Notes: generated by a model from the sequence alone, not told the origin. DNA of 64,000 bases from Escherichia coli (GCF_001677475.2 NZ_CP015229.1); one strand, 5' to 3'; shown: positions 5,877-22,738, counted from the stretch's first letter. Numbers and translations are program-made.

Positions 5877-6324
5877 TAGCTTTTTCTATAAGCTCGTCAG
5901 TCTCACGTTCCACAACAGATGGATCCGCAAAAAGCAGCCCGGACTCCACCACATCGCCATATTCTTTGTTTAACCCGGCGATCATGTACGTAATGCTTTT
6001 TCCGTCAGTAATTTCACAATACAACCTGAAATCGCTGATCCGGATAGCCTCCATAATTGCCGGAATCAGCGCCGTGAATTTTTCCCGCTTATCCCTGGTG
6101 TCGATAGCTTTCCAGCGTTCGAATATCTTCACCCGGTTAACGCCCAGCGCCCGTTGATCAACCTCGCCATCATTAAACGTGACGCGTTGAACATCGATGT
6201 TCGGGCGTTCTTTCAGAGCCCAGAATGCTTCCGTGATTAAAATAGTCGCCTGCTCCTGTGTCATTCCTGGTCGGCATACCCAGGCATCCAGAGCCTCACA
6301 AACCTGTTCAGGGGTGATTTTCAT
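5773..6324 (-). CDS. YdaT-like prophage regulatory protein (CII-position gene)
   Basis: Lies directly downstream of the cro-like gene; central segment REKFTALIPAIMEAIRISDFRL resembles the YdaT-family helix; call is by position and weak motif only. Confidence 0.45.
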   Translation of the reverse strand: MKITPEQVCEALDAWVCRPGMTQEQATILITEAFWALKERPNIDVQRVTFNDGEVDQRALGVNRVKIFERWKAIDTRDKREKFTALIPAIMEAIRISDFRLYCEITDGKSITYMIAGLNKEYGDVVESGLLFADPSVVERETDELIEKAIAFKHAYRQQYHYYFADKQMSARGSYEYRCTTVG

Positions 6325-6535
6325 TGTTCAACCGCCCCGCCCGCTTTGCCTTACGATATTCGTCATAAACTTTGGGGTCGTACTGAAGTTCCCCGCCGGA
6401 TGCCTCTTGCAGGCGCATCGCGCGACCTTCAGGAACCAGTTCCCCCCATGCAGCAATGCTTGCCAGCCTAACTCCTGCGGCATTGGCAAGCTTTGTTTTG
6501 CTGCCAAAAAACGCTATAGCATCAATTTTCAACAT
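6308..6535 (-). CDS. dicC: DicC-like Cro-type regulator
   Basis: 75-aa protein divergent from the DicA-like repressor across a 76-bp operator region; sequence pattern MLKIDAIAFFGSKTKLANAAGVRLASIAAWGE...EGRAMRLQEASGGELQYDPKVYDEY matches my recollection of DicC. Confidence 0.7.
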   Translation of the reverse strand: MLKIDAIAFFGSKTKLANAAGVRLASIAAWGELVPEGRAMRLQEASGGELQYDPKVYDEYRKAKRAGRLNNENHP

Positions 6536-6611
6536 ATCGAGTTCCTTAGATTTTCCTAAGGAAACTAGATCGTAGAGAAACCTAAGTCAATAAAAATTAG
6601 AATTCCCTAAT
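6536..6611. promoter_or_regulatory. Divergent operator/promoter region between the dicC-like and dicA-like genes
   Basis: Contains the inverted repeat CCTTAG-N6-CTAAGG and a further CCTAAG half-site; expected location of the immunity switch. Confidence 0.5.
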
Positions 6612-7019
6612 ATGAAAAACGAAACCTTCGGTGCTCGCCTCTTACATAGGCGTAAAAAATTAAAACTGTCTCAGGCCGCATTAGGTAAGCTGGTCAAAGT
6701 GGCTCACGTAACAATTTCTCAATGGGAAAGAGATGAAACACAGCCGGCGGGGAAAAGATTATTCGCACTGAGCCAAGCGCTTCAGTGCTCACCGACTTGG
6801 CTTCTTTTTGGGGATGAAGATAAACAACCAGGCGAACCGATCCCGGATAATCAGCCAGCCATTCTGACAGAAGATCAAAAAGAGTTACTTCAACTGTTCG
6901 ACGCACTGCCTGAGTCAGAGCAAAAGGCCCTGTTGTCAGAGATGCGTGCTCGAGTTGAAAATTTCAACAAACTTTTTGAAGAACTACTCAAAGCTCGCAA
7001 AAGAAGCGCAAACAAATAA
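6612..7019 (+). CDS. dicA: DicA-like prophage repressor (XRE-family HTH)
   Basis: 135 aa; strong pattern match to DicA as I recall it (LFALSQALQCSPTWLLFGDEDKQP, LFDALPESEQ, MRARVENFNKLFEELLKAR). Confidence 0.85.
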   Translation: MKNETFGARLLHRRKKLKLSQAALGKLVKVAHVTISQWERDETQPAGKRLFALSQALQCSPTWLLFGDEDKQPGEPIPDNQPAILTEDQKELLQLFDALPESEQKALLSEMRARVENFNKLFEELLKARKRSANK

Positions 7020-7029
7020 CCCCCTTTTT

Positions 7030-7150
7030 TCTCCACACCCTGTAATAAAAAGCACAAAATTTCAAACAATTGTGTTTTTTACATCAAAAAACTTAGGTTT
7101 TTCTACATAAACAGCTTGACCACATACCTTAGGTTATTCTAAATTTCATT
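7030..7150. promoter_or_regulatory. Putative second operator set and early promoter downstream of dicA
   Basis: Repeated motifs CTTAGGTTTTTCTAC and CCTTAGGTTATTCTAA share the CTTAGG half-site with the dicC-dicA intergenic region; AT-rich. Confidence 0.4.
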
Positions 7151-7221
7151 CATCAAGACACCGCACGGTGTTCTCAGCAAACAGTTCCGCTACCCCAGCG
7201 TTAAGGGGAAATGAGGTCAGC

Positions 7222-7377
7222 ATGGATACTATCGATCTTGGTAACAACGAATCTCTGGTGTGCGGCGTGTTCCCAAACCAGGACGGCACATTCACCGCGA
7301 TGACGTATACCAGAAGCAAAACGTTTAAAACCGAAGCTGGCGCGCGTCGCTGGCTGGAAAGAAATTCAGGTGAGTGA
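7222..7377 (+). CDS. ydfA: YdfA-like small protein (51 aa)
   Basis: Size and position (first gene of the dicB operon) match Qin ydfA; the ORF track 7168..7377 includes an upstream extension. Confidence 0.65.
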   Translation: MDTIDLGNNESLVCGVFPNQDGTFTAMTYTRSKTFKTEAGARRWLERNSGE

Positions 7378-7378
7378 T

Positions 7379-7507
7379 ATGGATTTCGACGCAATCATGG
7401 AAAAGGCTTACGAAGAATACTTCGAAGGCCTTGCCGAAGGCGAAGAAGCTCTCAGCTTCAGTGAGTTTAAACAGACGCTTTCCAGTTCGGCAAAATCTAA
7501 CGACTGA
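7379..7507 (+). CDS. ydfB: YdfB-like small acidic protein (42 aa)
   Basis: Hand-translated MDFDAIMEKAYEEYFEGLAEGEEALSFSEFKQTLSSSAKSND; the ATG lies 1 nt after the ydfA stop; size and position match Qin ydfB. Confidence 0.55.
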   Translation: MDFDAIMEKAYEEYFEGLAEGEEALSFSEFKQTLSSSAKSND

Positions 7508-7536: not shown

Positions 7537-7752
7537 ATGCAGAAACGAGAACCCGTCATCATCGCACCAGACTATACCGAGGATGAAATTTACGAATGGA
7601 TGTGCGGAAAGATACGCGCCATTAATTACCTGAAGCAGGCCGCTGACTACAAAGAGCGCCTCTCTAAAGAACTGGTGTCAGCGGAGCAGGATATTACCAC
7701 TCTGGCAAAAAGCGCGGCATTAAACGTTTCGCGAGTGACTGAAAACTACTGA
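7537..7752 (+). CDS. ydfC: YdfC-like protein (71 aa)
   Basis: ORF track; size and position match Qin ydfC. Confidence 0.6.
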   Translation: MQKREPVIIAPDYTEDEIYEWMCGKIRAINYLKQAADYKERLSKELVSAEQDITTLAKSAALNVSRVTENY

Positions 7753-7841
7753 CCACTGAGCTCAAGTAGTTCTCCACAGATGAAGTGCGTGCGCCGGACA
7801 CGGATAAACCTCCGGCATGCTCTTTAACAATCTGGATATTC

Positions 7842-8288
7842 CTAACCACAAAGAAATCGCATCAATTTGGATTTTGTGGGCAACTTCTCTTGTTGTTCGA
7901 TGGAGACGCCCATTTTGATCTGTGTTTTTAAGATCGCAATATCTTTAAGTGATGACCAAATATGACCATCTGTTTTTTCCAGAATTTTTAACTGAATTTT
8001 CAATTCCGAATCAGAATATTTTTCTGCATCATCAAAAAGCTGCAAATATTCTGCGGATTTTCTCATGGCATTACCTGACTTTTGTCCGAATCCATAAATC
8101 GTTTGGACGGTTGCGATCACAACAATAAAAACGCCAGAAATTTCCGGAATGAATCCGCCAATGACAGATGAACCGAGGATAACACTCACTACTGAGAGAA
8201 GTTTATCGAGACGACCAGTCGCTACAGAAAATAGTTGCTCAAGAAAATAGCCATATAAAATTCTGTCAAGAATATCATCCCGGTCCAT
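7842..8288 (-). CDS. Two-TM membrane protein encoded antisense inside the dicBF operon (148 aa); candidate superinfection-exclusion or abortive-infection protein
   Basis: ORF track; AT-rich codon usage distinct from its flanks; AGGTGA Shine-Dalgarno 7 nt upstream of the ATG; two adjacent hydrophobic helices (about residues 35 to 75) and a charged C-terminal domain; sits in extra DNA absent from the K-12 Qin ydfC-dicF interval as I recall it. Confidence 0.6.
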   Translation of the reverse strand: MDRDDILDRILYGYFLEQLFSVATGRLDKLLSVVSVILGSSVIGGFIPEISGVFIVVIATVQTIYGFGQKSGNAMRKSAEYLQLFDDAEKYSDSELKIQLKILEKTDGHIWSSLKDIAILKTQIKMGVSIEQQEKLPTKSKLMRFLCG

Positions 8289-8746: not shown

Positions 8747-8799
8747 ATTCTGGTGACATTTGGCGGTATCAGTTTTACTCCGTGACTGCTCTGCCGCCC
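8747..8799 (+). ncRNA. dicF: DicF small RNA
   Basis: The sequence tTCTGGTGACaTTTGGCGGTATCAGTTTTACTCCGTGACTGCTCTGCCGCCCTTTTT matches the 53-nt DicF sequence from memory with about two substitutions, ends in a GC hairpin plus U-run, and lies about 185 bp upstream of dicB as in Qin. Confidence 0.65.
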
Positions 8800-8983: not shown

Positions 8984-9172
8984 ATGGAAAAGTTATCATG
9001 CAATGCCAGTACGTCTGAACTTCGTTTCGAAATTGGCGTTATCACTGGAGAAAAAACATTTATTGAAGACGCCATTAAGCAGAGAAAACTCGAGCAGGAC
9101 CTGTTAAATGAAGTATGCATTCCTTCAATGCTGGCTCGTCTGGACCTGCTGCAAAAAGGATATAAACAATGA
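8984..9172 (+). CDS. dicB: DicB-like cell division inhibitor (62 aa)
   Basis: Internal start MEKLSCNASTSELRFEIGVITGEKTFIEDAIKQRKLEQDLLNEVCIPSMLARLDLLQKGYKQ aligns along its length with K-12 DicB (FEIGV, EDAI.KRK, SMLARL); the ORF track 8876..9172 is an upstream extension. Confidence 0.85.
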   Translation: MEKLSCNASTSELRFEIGVITGEKTFIEDAIKQRKLEQDLLNEVCIPSMLARLDLLQKGYKQ

Positions 9173-11977: not shown

Positions 11978-12187
11978 ATGGCTATGAGCAGCTTATTTTT
12001 AACCGAAGATGAATTGCTAATATTAACGGGCTGCAAATATGCAAGCCACCAGCGAAAATGGTTAATGGAAAACGGGCTTCCGTTCTATACCAATCGTAGT
12101 GGCAAACCGATTGTCAGCCGGGATCTATTTACCTGCAATAAAACTTTACCACCACGCGAGGTAGAGCCGAATTTTGGTGCAATCTGA
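11978..12187 (+). CDS. Excisionase-like small DNA-binding protein
   Basis: 69-aa ORF immediately upstream of and overlapping the integrase start; the position is typical of xis. Confidence 0.5.
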   Translation: MAMSSLFLTEDELLILTGCKYASHQRKWLMENGLPFYTNRSGKPIVSRDLFTCNKTLPPREVEPNFGAI

Positions 12188-13212
12188 TGGGAAGACGAAG
12201 GAAAAATCCTGAACACGAAAAATTACCTCCAAATGTATACCCAAATAAATATAGTTATGTATGGAAACCAACATCCAGAGAATCTGTCACACTAACCGCC
12301 ATCAAGGATGGTTTAGCTGCTTTATGGAAAAAGTATGAGGAAACTGTAAATAATCGCGATCGCGCAATGACATTCGGTCGCTTGTGGGAAAAATTCCTCG
12401 CCAGCGCCTATTACAGTGACCTCAGTCCAAGAACACAAAAAGATTATCTGCAACATCAAAAAAAGTTGCTTGCCGTATTCGGTAAGGTGCCGGCAGATTC
12501 CATAAAACCAGAACACATCCGTCGATACATGGACAAGAGAGGGGAACAGAGTAAAACGCAAGCCAACCATGAAAAAAGCAGTATGTCCCGCGTTTACAAT
12601 TGGGGGTATGAGCGAGGGTACGTGAAGGGTAACCCATGTGCAGGTGTAAGTAAATTCAAGGCCAAAAACCGCGAACGATATGTAACCGACAAAGAATACC
12701 AGGCAGTATTAAGTGTTGCACCTCTTCCTGTTTTTATCGCAATGGAAATTGCCTATCTGTGTGCAGCGAGGGTTTCCGATGTGTTATCACTGAAATGGGA
12801 GCAGATTGGAAACGACGGGATCTTTATCCAGCAAGGGAAAACAGGGAAAAAACAGATAAAAGCATGGAGTCCACGATTACAGGCGGCGATCGAAAAAGCA
12901 AAACAGTTACCAACATCTGCCTATGTAATCAGCAATCAATATGGCAACCGATATATGTACAAAGGTTTTAACGAAATGTGGGTAGAAGCAAGAAATCACG
13001 CAGGCAAAATTTCAGGTATTTTAACCGACTTCACCTTTCATGATCTGAAGGCGAAAGGAATTTCAGACTATGAAGGAAGCAGCCGGGATAAGCAACTTTT
13101 CTCTGGTCACAAAACCGAAGGGCAAGTGCTAATCTATGACAGAAAGGTTAAAGTTTCACCAACACTTGATGTCCCGTTACCTGATAATATTCCAAGAAAA
13201 TATTCCAAGTAA
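12187..13212 (+). CDS. int: Tyrosine-type phage integrase
   Basis: 341 aa; C-terminal catalytic region with H-x-x-R (FTFHDLKAKG) and the tyrosine motif (VLIYDRK); ends about 50 bp from the 3-prime end of tRNA-Ser. Confidence 0.9.
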   Translation: MGRRRKNPEHEKLPPNVYPNKYSYVWKPTSRESVTLTAIKDGLAALWKKYEETVNNRDRAMTFGRLWEKFLASAYYSDLSPRTQKDYLQHQKKLLAVFGKVPADSIKPEHIRRYMDKRGEQSKTQANHEKSSMSRVYNWGYERGYVKGNPCAGVSKFKAKNRERYVTDKEYQAVLSVAPLPVFIAMEIAYLCAARVSDVLSLKWEQIGNDGIFIQQGKTGKKQIKAWSPRLQAAIEKAKQLPTSAYVISNQYGNRYMYKGFNEMWVEARNHAGKISGILTDFTFHDLKAKGISDYEGSSRDKQLFSGHKTEGQVLIYDRKVKVSPTLDVPLPDNIPRKYSK

Positions 13213-13354: not shown

Positions 13355-13447
13355 GTTCAGATGGTTGCCATGATGCCAGGAAATTTGGCATTTTAACAGT
13401 CCCTGTCCGTGCAATTTTGTTCAAGTGACGAGTTTGCGAGCAAAACG

Positions 13448-14245
13448 ATGATTAAGTGGCCCTGGAAAGTACAAGAATCAGCACATCAAACTGCCCTTCC
13501 CTGGCAGGAAGCACTATCGATCCCCCTTTTAACGTGTCTGACGGAACAGGAACAAAGCAAATTAGTCACTCTTGCCGAACGTTTTTTACAGCAAAAACGG
13601 CTTGTTCCTTTACAGGGCTTTGAACTGGATTCATTAAGAAGCTGCCGGATAGCACTTCTATTTTGCCTGCCCGTTCTGGAGTTAGGACTGGAATGGCTGG
13701 ATGGTTTTCATGAAGTCTTAATTTATCCTGCGCCATTTGTGGTCGATGATGAATGGGAAGACGATATCGGTCTGGTGCATAACCAACGTATTGTTCAGTC
13801 AGGTCAGAGCTGGCAGCAAGGGCCTATCGTTTTGAACTGGTTGGATATACAAGATTCTTTTGATGCTTCTGGTTTTAACCTGATTATTCATGAAGTCGCT
13901 CATAAGCTGGACACCCGTAACGGCGATCGCGCCAGTGGAGTTCCCTTTATTCCGTTGCGTGAGGTTGCTGGCTGGGAACACGATCTTCATGCTGCAATGA
14001 ACAACATTCAGGAAGAAATCGAATTAGTTGGCGAGAATGCGGCGAGCATTGATGCTTATGCTGCCAGTGATCCTGCTGAATGTTTTGCCGTACTTTCTGA
14101 ATATTTCTTTAACGCCCCAGAACTTTTTGCTCCTCGTTTCCCTTCATTGTGGCAACGTTTCTGCCAATTTTATCAACAAGATCCTTTGCAGAGACTGCAT
14201 CACGCTAATGATACAGACTCGTTTTCGGCGACGAATGTTCATTAA
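13448..14245 (+). CDS. mtfA: MtfA (Mlc titration factor A) zinc-dependent peptidase
   Basis: Internal start MIKWPWK within ORF 13409..14245; HEVAH zinc-binding motif; matches E. coli MtfA/YeeI in sequence and position next to asnT. Confidence 0.85.
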
Positions 14246-14543: not shown

Positions 14544-14734
14544 TATGAACGCCATCACCATTTTCCCCTCGATTATAAAACTTGAGTTATTCAGTAGTCT
14601 CCCCTCTTGCAACTCACACCCAAAACTGCCTAACGAAAAGTTATTAATTTTCAATCATATTGCTATCAGGATTTACATTTTTTCGCTGTGCTAGAAAGGG
14701 CGCATTTATGTTAGCTCGTTCAGGGAAGGTCAGC

Positions 14735-22738
<8,004 letters not shown>

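Follow-up and report, generated by a model that had tools for sequence, protein, structure and literature searches.

The DNA analysed here, referred to as the window, is a stretch of 64,000 nucleotides from Escherichia coli (GCF_001677475.2, NZ_CP015229.1) in which a lambdoid prophage reaches its right end with a tyrosine integrase gene (12187-13212). The integrase is followed by a host gene of the Peptidase_M90 family (MtfA-like; 13409-14245) and then by a 2,692-aa open reading frame (ORF; 14660-22738). Since the prophage ends at the integrase and host genes come next, about 50 kb of the window is host chromosome. The prophage part carries two divergent regulatory genes which, in the ORF reading of the window, are separated by a spacer of 76 bp. 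The leftward gene, dicC (6308..6535, minus strand), is an ORF for a Cro-like regulator of 75 aa that shares 84% identity with K-12 DicC and matches Pfam P22_Cro (E = 3e-13) as well as the P22 Cro structure 1rzs (E = 2.5e-7). The rightward ORF, dicA (6612..7019, plus strand), encodes a CI-like repressor of 135 aa with 62% identity to K-12 DicA over 131 aa. Its N-terminal part is a P22 C2-type helix-turn-helix and its C-terminal part is short and helical, the C-terminal half being conserved. The Pfam search of DicA returned HTH_3 alone, that is, helix-turn-helix families only, and no S24 (LexA-like) autocleavage domain was found in the 135 residues.

Downstream of dicA, the plus-strand ORFs ydfA (7222-7377; Pfam DUF1391), ydfB (7379-7507) and ydfC (7537-7752) open the right-arm operon that is subject to repression, and homologous loci are annotated likewise. 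Further along the same strand are the DicF small RNA (8748-8799; Rfam RF00039, 77 bits versus a gathering score of 48), which was the only Rfam match in the analysis, and dicB (8984..9172), coding for a cell-division inhibitor of 62 aa (Pfam DicB, E = 2e-38). After dicB the right arm continues with a DUF1482 gene, an exonuclease gene and the integrase, and the left arm, beyond dicC, contains YdaT-like, DnaT-domain and lambda-P-like replication genes. The names that a preliminary description of the sequence had given to dicA, dicC, ydfABC, dicF and dicB hold on identity to K-12, Pfam and Rfam. The right arm also contains, between ydfC and dicF, a minus-strand ORF of 148 aa (7842-8288) with no Pfam match, which could be a moron gene inserted within the dicB operon. 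The annotation of E. coli CEA224S has a shorter 'hypothetical protein' in that orientation in the interval from ydfC to dicB (7721-7945 of locus L001).

The region 6536-7150 contains five 18-bp dyads built on the core TTAG-N6-CTAA, with the full consensus CCTTAG-N6-CTAAGG. Three of them are situated in the dicC-dicA spacer and two at the promoter 3' of dicA that drives ydfABC-dicF-dicB. S1 (6544-6561; CCTTAG-ATTTTC-CTAAGG) is a perfect, OR1-like dyad and the positional match of K-12 Oc, its centre being 59.5 bp from the dicA ATG exactly as in K-12; it covers the inferred dicC start site and the dicC ribosome-binding site AAGGA. S2 (6570-6587; tcGTAG-AGAAAC-CTAAGt), OR2-like and at the Om position, has one core mismatch, lies over the spacer and the -35 of the inferred dicC promoter, and is in reverse complement 94% identical to S4. 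S3 (6595-6612; aaTTAG-AATTCC-CTAAta), OR3-like and at the Oa position, abuts the dicA ATG and includes the inferred dicA -10, TAGAAT (6598-6603). On the far side of dicA, the OL2-like S4 (7091-7108; aCTTAG-GTTTTT-CTACat) ends 7 bp upstream of the dicB-operon -35, and the OL1-like S5 (7127-7144; cCTTAG-GTTATT-CTAAat) fills the spacer between -35 and -10 and overlaps the -10. No third right-hand site was found between the dicA stop codon and S4, a stretch that carries a terminator-like hairpin instead. The preliminary description had seen S1, S4, S5 and half of S2. The inverted repeat at 6544-6561 and the additional half-site CCTAAG (6581-6586) that it reported are both present, but the half-site belongs to the full dyad S2. 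Similarly, the two copies noticed downstream of dicA, CTTAGGTTTTTCTA (7092-7105) and CTTAGGTTATTCTA (7128-7141), exist, yet they are not mere direct repeats but the dyads S4 and S5. S3 had been missed, and the true arrangement is three plus two full dyads.

The significance of these dyads lies only in their local clustering. Across the 64-kb window the hexamer CTTAGG is not enriched (8 observed versus 17 expected), nor is the dyad core with at most one mismatch (9 observed versus 17 expected), but five of the nine core dyads of the 64 kb fall within about 600 bp (6546-7142). The local sequence was shuffled 20,000 times with its dinucleotide composition preserved. The three dyads of the dicC-dicA spacer compare with 0.11 expected, a number reached in none of the 20,000 shuffles; the two of the dicA-ydfA spacer compare with 0.12 expected (P = 0.005), and the five of the whole stretch 6536-7150 with 0.35 expected (P about 5e-5). 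The dyad cluster is not a product of chance.

The two groups of sites overlap outward-facing promoters that flank dicA, comparable to OR and OL of lambda. The inferred, PR-like dicC promoter (6562..6590, minus strand) has the -35 TTGACT at 6590-6585, a spacer of 17 nt and the -10 TAGTTT at 6567-6562. A consensus promoter scan reported neither the dicC nor the dicA promoter, the former falling below threshold; the dicC promoter was placed by reference to K-12, in which TTGACT-17-TATCTT occupies the equivalent place, and among relatives its -10 reads TAGTTT, TAATTT or TATTTT. Both of these putative promoters are placed by position and homology. At dicA, TAGAAT sits 8 nt ahead of the ATG, no Shine-Dalgarno sequence was found upstream of that ATG on reading the sequence, and the K-12 dicA mRNA is leaderless (PMC4681348, Fig. 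2A). With TAGAAT lying inside S3, these observations suggest by analogy to K-12 that S3 and the core promoter of dicA most likely overlap, like OR3 and PRM in lambda. The scan did report the dicBp-like, PL-like promoter (7116..7145, plus strand), composed of TTGACC, an 18-nt spacer and TAAATT, at a position equivalent to that of K-12 dicBp (TTGACC-17-TAATCT).

A hairpin followed by a T-run (7046..7081, plus strand; fold -9.4 kcal/mol, z = -3.3) resembles a terminator and probably ends dicA transcripts ahead of the dicB-operon promoter. Loci of the K-12 type, described below, have an unrelated hairpin with a T-run in the equivalent place after dicA. Since both types carry such an element with unrelated sequences, the terminator function is apparently conserved without conservation of sequence. 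Directly after the dicA stop codon, a poly-C/poly-T tract (7020-7033) varies in length among loci of the window's type that are otherwise near-identical. Just past the stop codon, loci L080 and L081 contain an extra hairpin, AGCTAAGTT-N7-AACTTAGCT, with the order of CTAAG and CTTAG reversed, possibly a terminator or a further site.

All five dyads lie inside a cassette (6431..7162) that diverges from the K-12 Qin prophage and takes in the 5' half of dicC, the operators and dicA, ending just past S5. The DNA on either side mostly shares 90% identity or more with Qin (83-100% in each 30-column bin of the identity profile), and a divergent cassette in such surroundings is classical for lambdoid immunity modules. 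The cassette was matched in 750 of 5,426 complete E. coli genomes at a coverage of at least 80%, with identities mostly of 90-95%. The features of a Qin-type DicA/DicC locus are found here, namely DicA and divergent DicC orthologues, ydfABC-dicF-dicB, and dyads at the spacer and at dicBp. The locus shares with K-12 Qin the gene order dicC, dicA, ydfABC, dicF, dicB, the DicA length of 135 aa, the operator core TTAG-N6-CTAA, the -35 elements TTGACT and TTGACC, the positions of the sites relative to the promoters, and the presence of two sites around dicBp that are 35-36 bp apart.

The operator sequences themselves differ. In K-12, Oc is TTGTTAGTCATAACTAACAA, Om is a degenerate middle site, Oa, adjoining the ATG, is TTAGCATTAGCTAA, and dicBp has TGTTAGCTATAGCATACA and TGTTAGTCATGGCTAATC on either side of TTGACC. 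The base flanking the half-site is C in the window and G in K-12, and the spacers are T-rich in the window and YCATRR in K-12, so that sites of the form CTTAG-(T-rich N6)-CTAAG stand against GTTAG-YCATRR-CTAAC. The middle site S2 is well formed, with one core mismatch, where K-12 Om is degenerate with three. The proteins differ as well: the DicA recognition helix reads AHVTIS in the window and SHVSVS in K-12, helix 2 reads SQAALGKLVKV and TQRSLAKALKI, respectively, and the DicC helix is also different. The K-12 operator specificity (Oc, TGTTAG..CTAACA) is absent, as every site in the region has at least two mismatches to GTTAG-N6-CTAAC. This absence, together with the exchanged C/G flanks and the different helix-turn-helix, indicates that the window carries an alternative immunity allele of the known Qin DicA/DicC switch.

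Much is known about this switch in K-12. There, DicA is a repressor of dicC and an activator of dicA; in vivo it binds Oc but not isolated Om or Oa (PMC3441716). Deletion of dicA derepresses dicBp 22-fold, and DicA together with DicC behaves as a bistable switch (PMC10448788). According to the citation in the latter study, Bejar et al. (1988) placed operators in the dicA-dicC and dicA-dicBp spacers and likened them to lambda PR/PL; they reportedly described three sites at dicBp, where two are found in the window. DicC ChIP-seq gave its strongest signal and one inferred site on each side of dicA, with the palindromic motif TT(A/C/T)G..C(G/A/T)AA (PMC11430063). A DicA ChIP motif was also looked for in PMC12059191, whose main text does not mention DicA, and the literal operator sequences of the window's type had no match in the literature searched. 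Hence, the operator architecture is already published for K-12 Qin, and what is particular to the window is a variant allele with a slightly different operator sequence. One compilation lists the DicA site at dicB as location unknown (PMC7567609); the putative DicA/DicC sites at the dicB-operon promoter can now be placed at base-pair resolution.

Comparison across loci strengthens the assignment of the dyads to the repressor genes. The sample consisted of 80 loci with the DicA of the window, 80 with the DicA of K-12 and a few more found by alignment. Sorted by helix-turn-helix, the loci fall into three types: W, the type of the window, with the recognition helix AHVTIS and the operator CTTAG-(T-rich)-CTAAG; K, the type of K-12, with SHVSVS and GTTAG-YCATRR-CTAAC; and D, with SDVS(V/I)S and ATTAG-CCATAG-CTAAT. 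All W-type loci (recognition helix AHVTISQWE) keep dyads at the five positions, including relatives with only 74-86% DicA identity, although the right arm of S1 has decayed to CTAC in L074-L076. In those relatives, the block from S1 to the ATG is better conserved than the flanking coding DNA, and 3' of dicA it is S4, the -35 and S5 alone that stay aligned, the rest of the spacer being unalignable. The preliminary description had made conservation of the repeats in related prophages a test of its proposal, and the repeats are indeed kept at 74-86% DicA identity.

The base 5' of TTAG follows the repressor type. It is C 273 times and G 3 times at 48 non-redundant W loci, G 312 times and C 7 times at 57 K loci, and A in 13 of 18 half-sites at the two D loci included in the count; as the sequences are related, the counts overstate independence, and type D comprises five loci only. 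ATTAG..CTAAT is present at S1 of three further D loci. The composition of the spacer switches along with the type, and the flanks of S3 are A/T in every type, unlike those of S1. No further DicA specificity types were found by an alignment scan whose patterns were locked to the known recognition helices; the scan added three type-D loci. The type-D loci (L151, L158, L164, L217 and L218) carry at the middle position a different dyad, CAAG-CCATAA-CTTG, over the -35 in place of TTAG-N6-CTAA, and at the S4 position a related CAAG/CGAG..AACTTA element. The helix-turn-helix type of DicC switches together with that of DicA, so co-variation does not separate which protein reads which site.

The right-hand cluster adjoins the transcribed leader of the ydfA-dicF-dicB operon, and the leaders recombine with the immunity types in a natural swap. 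Of four distinct leader backbones, L2-L4 are combined with each of the types W, K and D, and L1 with W and K. The sequence of S5, although only about 10 bp separate it from the leader downstream, agrees in every case with the immunity type, whatever leader adjoins it. In loci L074-L082, L138-L164 and L217, the recombination joint between leader and immunity region lies within about 10-20 bp of S5, so that the immunity module ends very abruptly on its right-hand side.

The closest relatives of this switch outside Qin are those of P22 and lambda. The N-terminal 68 residues of DicA match the N-terminal domain of P22 C2 (1adr, 2r1j; E = 1e-21), Val33 and Gln37 of the C2 recognition helix are kept in DicA, and DicC is a sequence homologue of P22 Cro (1rzs; Pfam P22_Cro). 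The P22 operators are 18-bp dyads, ATTTAAGATATCTTAAAT, in which Val33 reads a TTAA half-site (PMC5175364). The DicA sites likewise span 18 bp and have a TTA-containing half-site at an equal offset from the centre, TTAG in their case. The P22 consensus ATTTAAG-N4-CTTAAAT itself had no match with up to three mismatches inside 6536-7150. In contrast to C2 with its 216 aa, the DicA of 135 aa lacks a RecA-cleavable C-terminal domain (PMC10448788), and compared with P22 immC the right-hand sites of the window number only two.

The likeness to lambda is one of layout: three operators separating divergent cI-like and cro-like genes, another set at the promoter beyond the repressor gene, and, for the K-12 homologue, a leaderless repressor mRNA and reported positive autoregulation. 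The operators have no sequence homology to those of lambda, and DicA has no S24 domain. The array also lies nearer the start site of the repressor by about one helical turn, with centres at about -8.5, -33.5 and -59.5, where those of lambda are at roughly -20, -42 and -66. In K-12, induction depends on the antirepressor Rem and not on RecA, and DicA lacks the Ala-Gly cleavage site (PMC10448788).

Taken together, the five dyads are best regarded as the shared operators of a bistable switch that the CI-like DicA and the Cro-like DicC form in a Qin-like lambdoid prophage, a reading to which a probability of about 0.85 may be given. Anatomy, statistics, conservation and co-variation come from this allele, and repression of both arms, binding at Oc and the leaderless dicA mRNA are carried over from K-12. 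In the proposed mechanism, DicA dimers would bind the 18-bp sites through their P22 C2-type helix-turn-helix. Occupancy of S1 and S2 would block the leftward dicC promoter and silence dicC and the replication genes behind it, and occupancy of S5, with the help of S4, would block the rightward promoter of ydfABC-dicF-dicB-exo-int. DicC, or DicA in excess, would turn dicA off from S3, over the dicA -10, and DicA at S1 would probably stimulate dicA transcription, as it does from Oc in K-12. Since isolated K-12 Om and Oa are unbound, S2 and S3 are perhaps weak for DicA, dependent on cooperativity or mainly DicC sites. For the window allele, the assignment of proteins to sites, any cooperativity and the exact start sites, expected at about 6555 on the minus strand and at 6612 (leaderless) and about 7152 on the plus strand, are inferred. 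The suggestion of a lambda-style OR/OL pair in the preliminary description is borne out in that the clusters lie over outward promoters, are conserved and co-vary with the recognition helix; lambda-style looping between OL and OR gained no support. Its further proposal that DicA could control both arms agrees with experiments on the K-12 orthologue, in which such control is seen (PMC3441716, PMC10448788, PMC11430063).

The main competitor assigns the sites mainly to DicC, with DicA acting at S1 and perhaps S5 only, and S2, S3 and S4 serving DicC or another factor. It draws on the binding of K-12 DicA to Oc and not to Om or Oa when these were tested singly (PMC3441716), on the DicC ChIP signal, which is strongest flanking dicA and whose TTNG..CNAA motif fits the shared core (PMC11430063), and on the A/T flanks that set S3 apart from S1 in all types. 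However, DicA represses both dicBp (22-fold, PMC10448788) and dicC (PMC3441716) and must therefore act at both clusters; single-site assays miss cooperative binding, and S2, with its one core mismatch, is a far better site than K-12 Om with three. A predominance of DicC over these sites is unlikely, though it deserves more weight than any other alternative to the shared-operator switch. A DicA-mediated loop joining the OR-like and OL-like clusters, in the manner of lambda CI octamers, would give tighter repression and allow autoregulation at S3. It would suit such a loop that like sites flank the repressor gene in two clusters, separated by about 583 bp, in a layout kept in all three types. 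DicA nevertheless lacks a C-terminal domain like that of lambda CI, and experimental hints at looping are absent. Moreover, the distance between the clusters is 583 bp in the window versus 546 bp in K-12 and varies with the poly-C/T tract among W loci, so helical phasing is not kept. Looping is accordingly rated as improbable.

The repeats might also lack a specific protein partner and have arisen by chance or from the base composition of AT-rich promoter DNA, given that the window as a whole shows no excess of CTTAGG or of the dyad core and that the spacers have a G+C content of 32-38%. Local shuffles that keep the composition nevertheless leave P at about 5e-5, the sites are conserved where the neighbouring DNA diverges and co-vary with the helix-turn-helix type, and the homologous K-12 site is bound (PMC3441716). 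With the shuffles, the conservation in relatives and the way in which S5 follows the immunity type, this explanation is effectively refuted and retains hardly any probability.

Beyond the shared-operator switch itself, a more detailed joint reading is put forward tentatively, at somewhat less than even odds for the whole. It would see the DicA family as a natural specificity series of three or more states, in which immunity is reset mainly by a single base pair in each half-site, at position 2 of the 18-bp operator (C/G/A), and by the composition of the spacer. The readers of these differences would be residues 22-23 after the invariant Gln21 (AA/RS/KS), and also recognition-helix positions 31-34 (AHVT/SHVS/SDVS). 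In the same reading, the array would stand one helical turn nearer to its leaderless repressor gene than in lambda, and autoactivation would proceed from the distal S1 (about -60) and not from the middle site.

The many E. coli strains with the W allele should be immune to another set of Qin-like phages than K-12 is. Cell division is inhibited by dicF and dicB, which also change how sensitive the cell is to phages and how virulence is regulated, and the operator allele therefore decides which co-resident prophage repressors can silence these two genes. Otherwise, the finding confirms textbook lambdoid logic.

The leader of the ydfA-dicF-dicB operon (7150..7221, plus strand) is conserved beyond the surrounding genes, being 100% identical to K-12 over 7163-7222. 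A comparison of the leader with Rfam returned no family and, at a relaxed threshold, one spurious lncRNA match, and the put element of HK022 provided no match for it among 50,697 phage records. It has two small hairpins with a few compensatory changes, and the structural support from RNAalifold is weak (4 pairs). A possible role of the leader is that of a nut/put-like element in antitermination or in processing. At other loci, versions of it with the pattern CATC..CAC.CACAGTG..TCAG..AACGTTCCGCC-loop-GGCG.TAAGG precede unrelated first genes.
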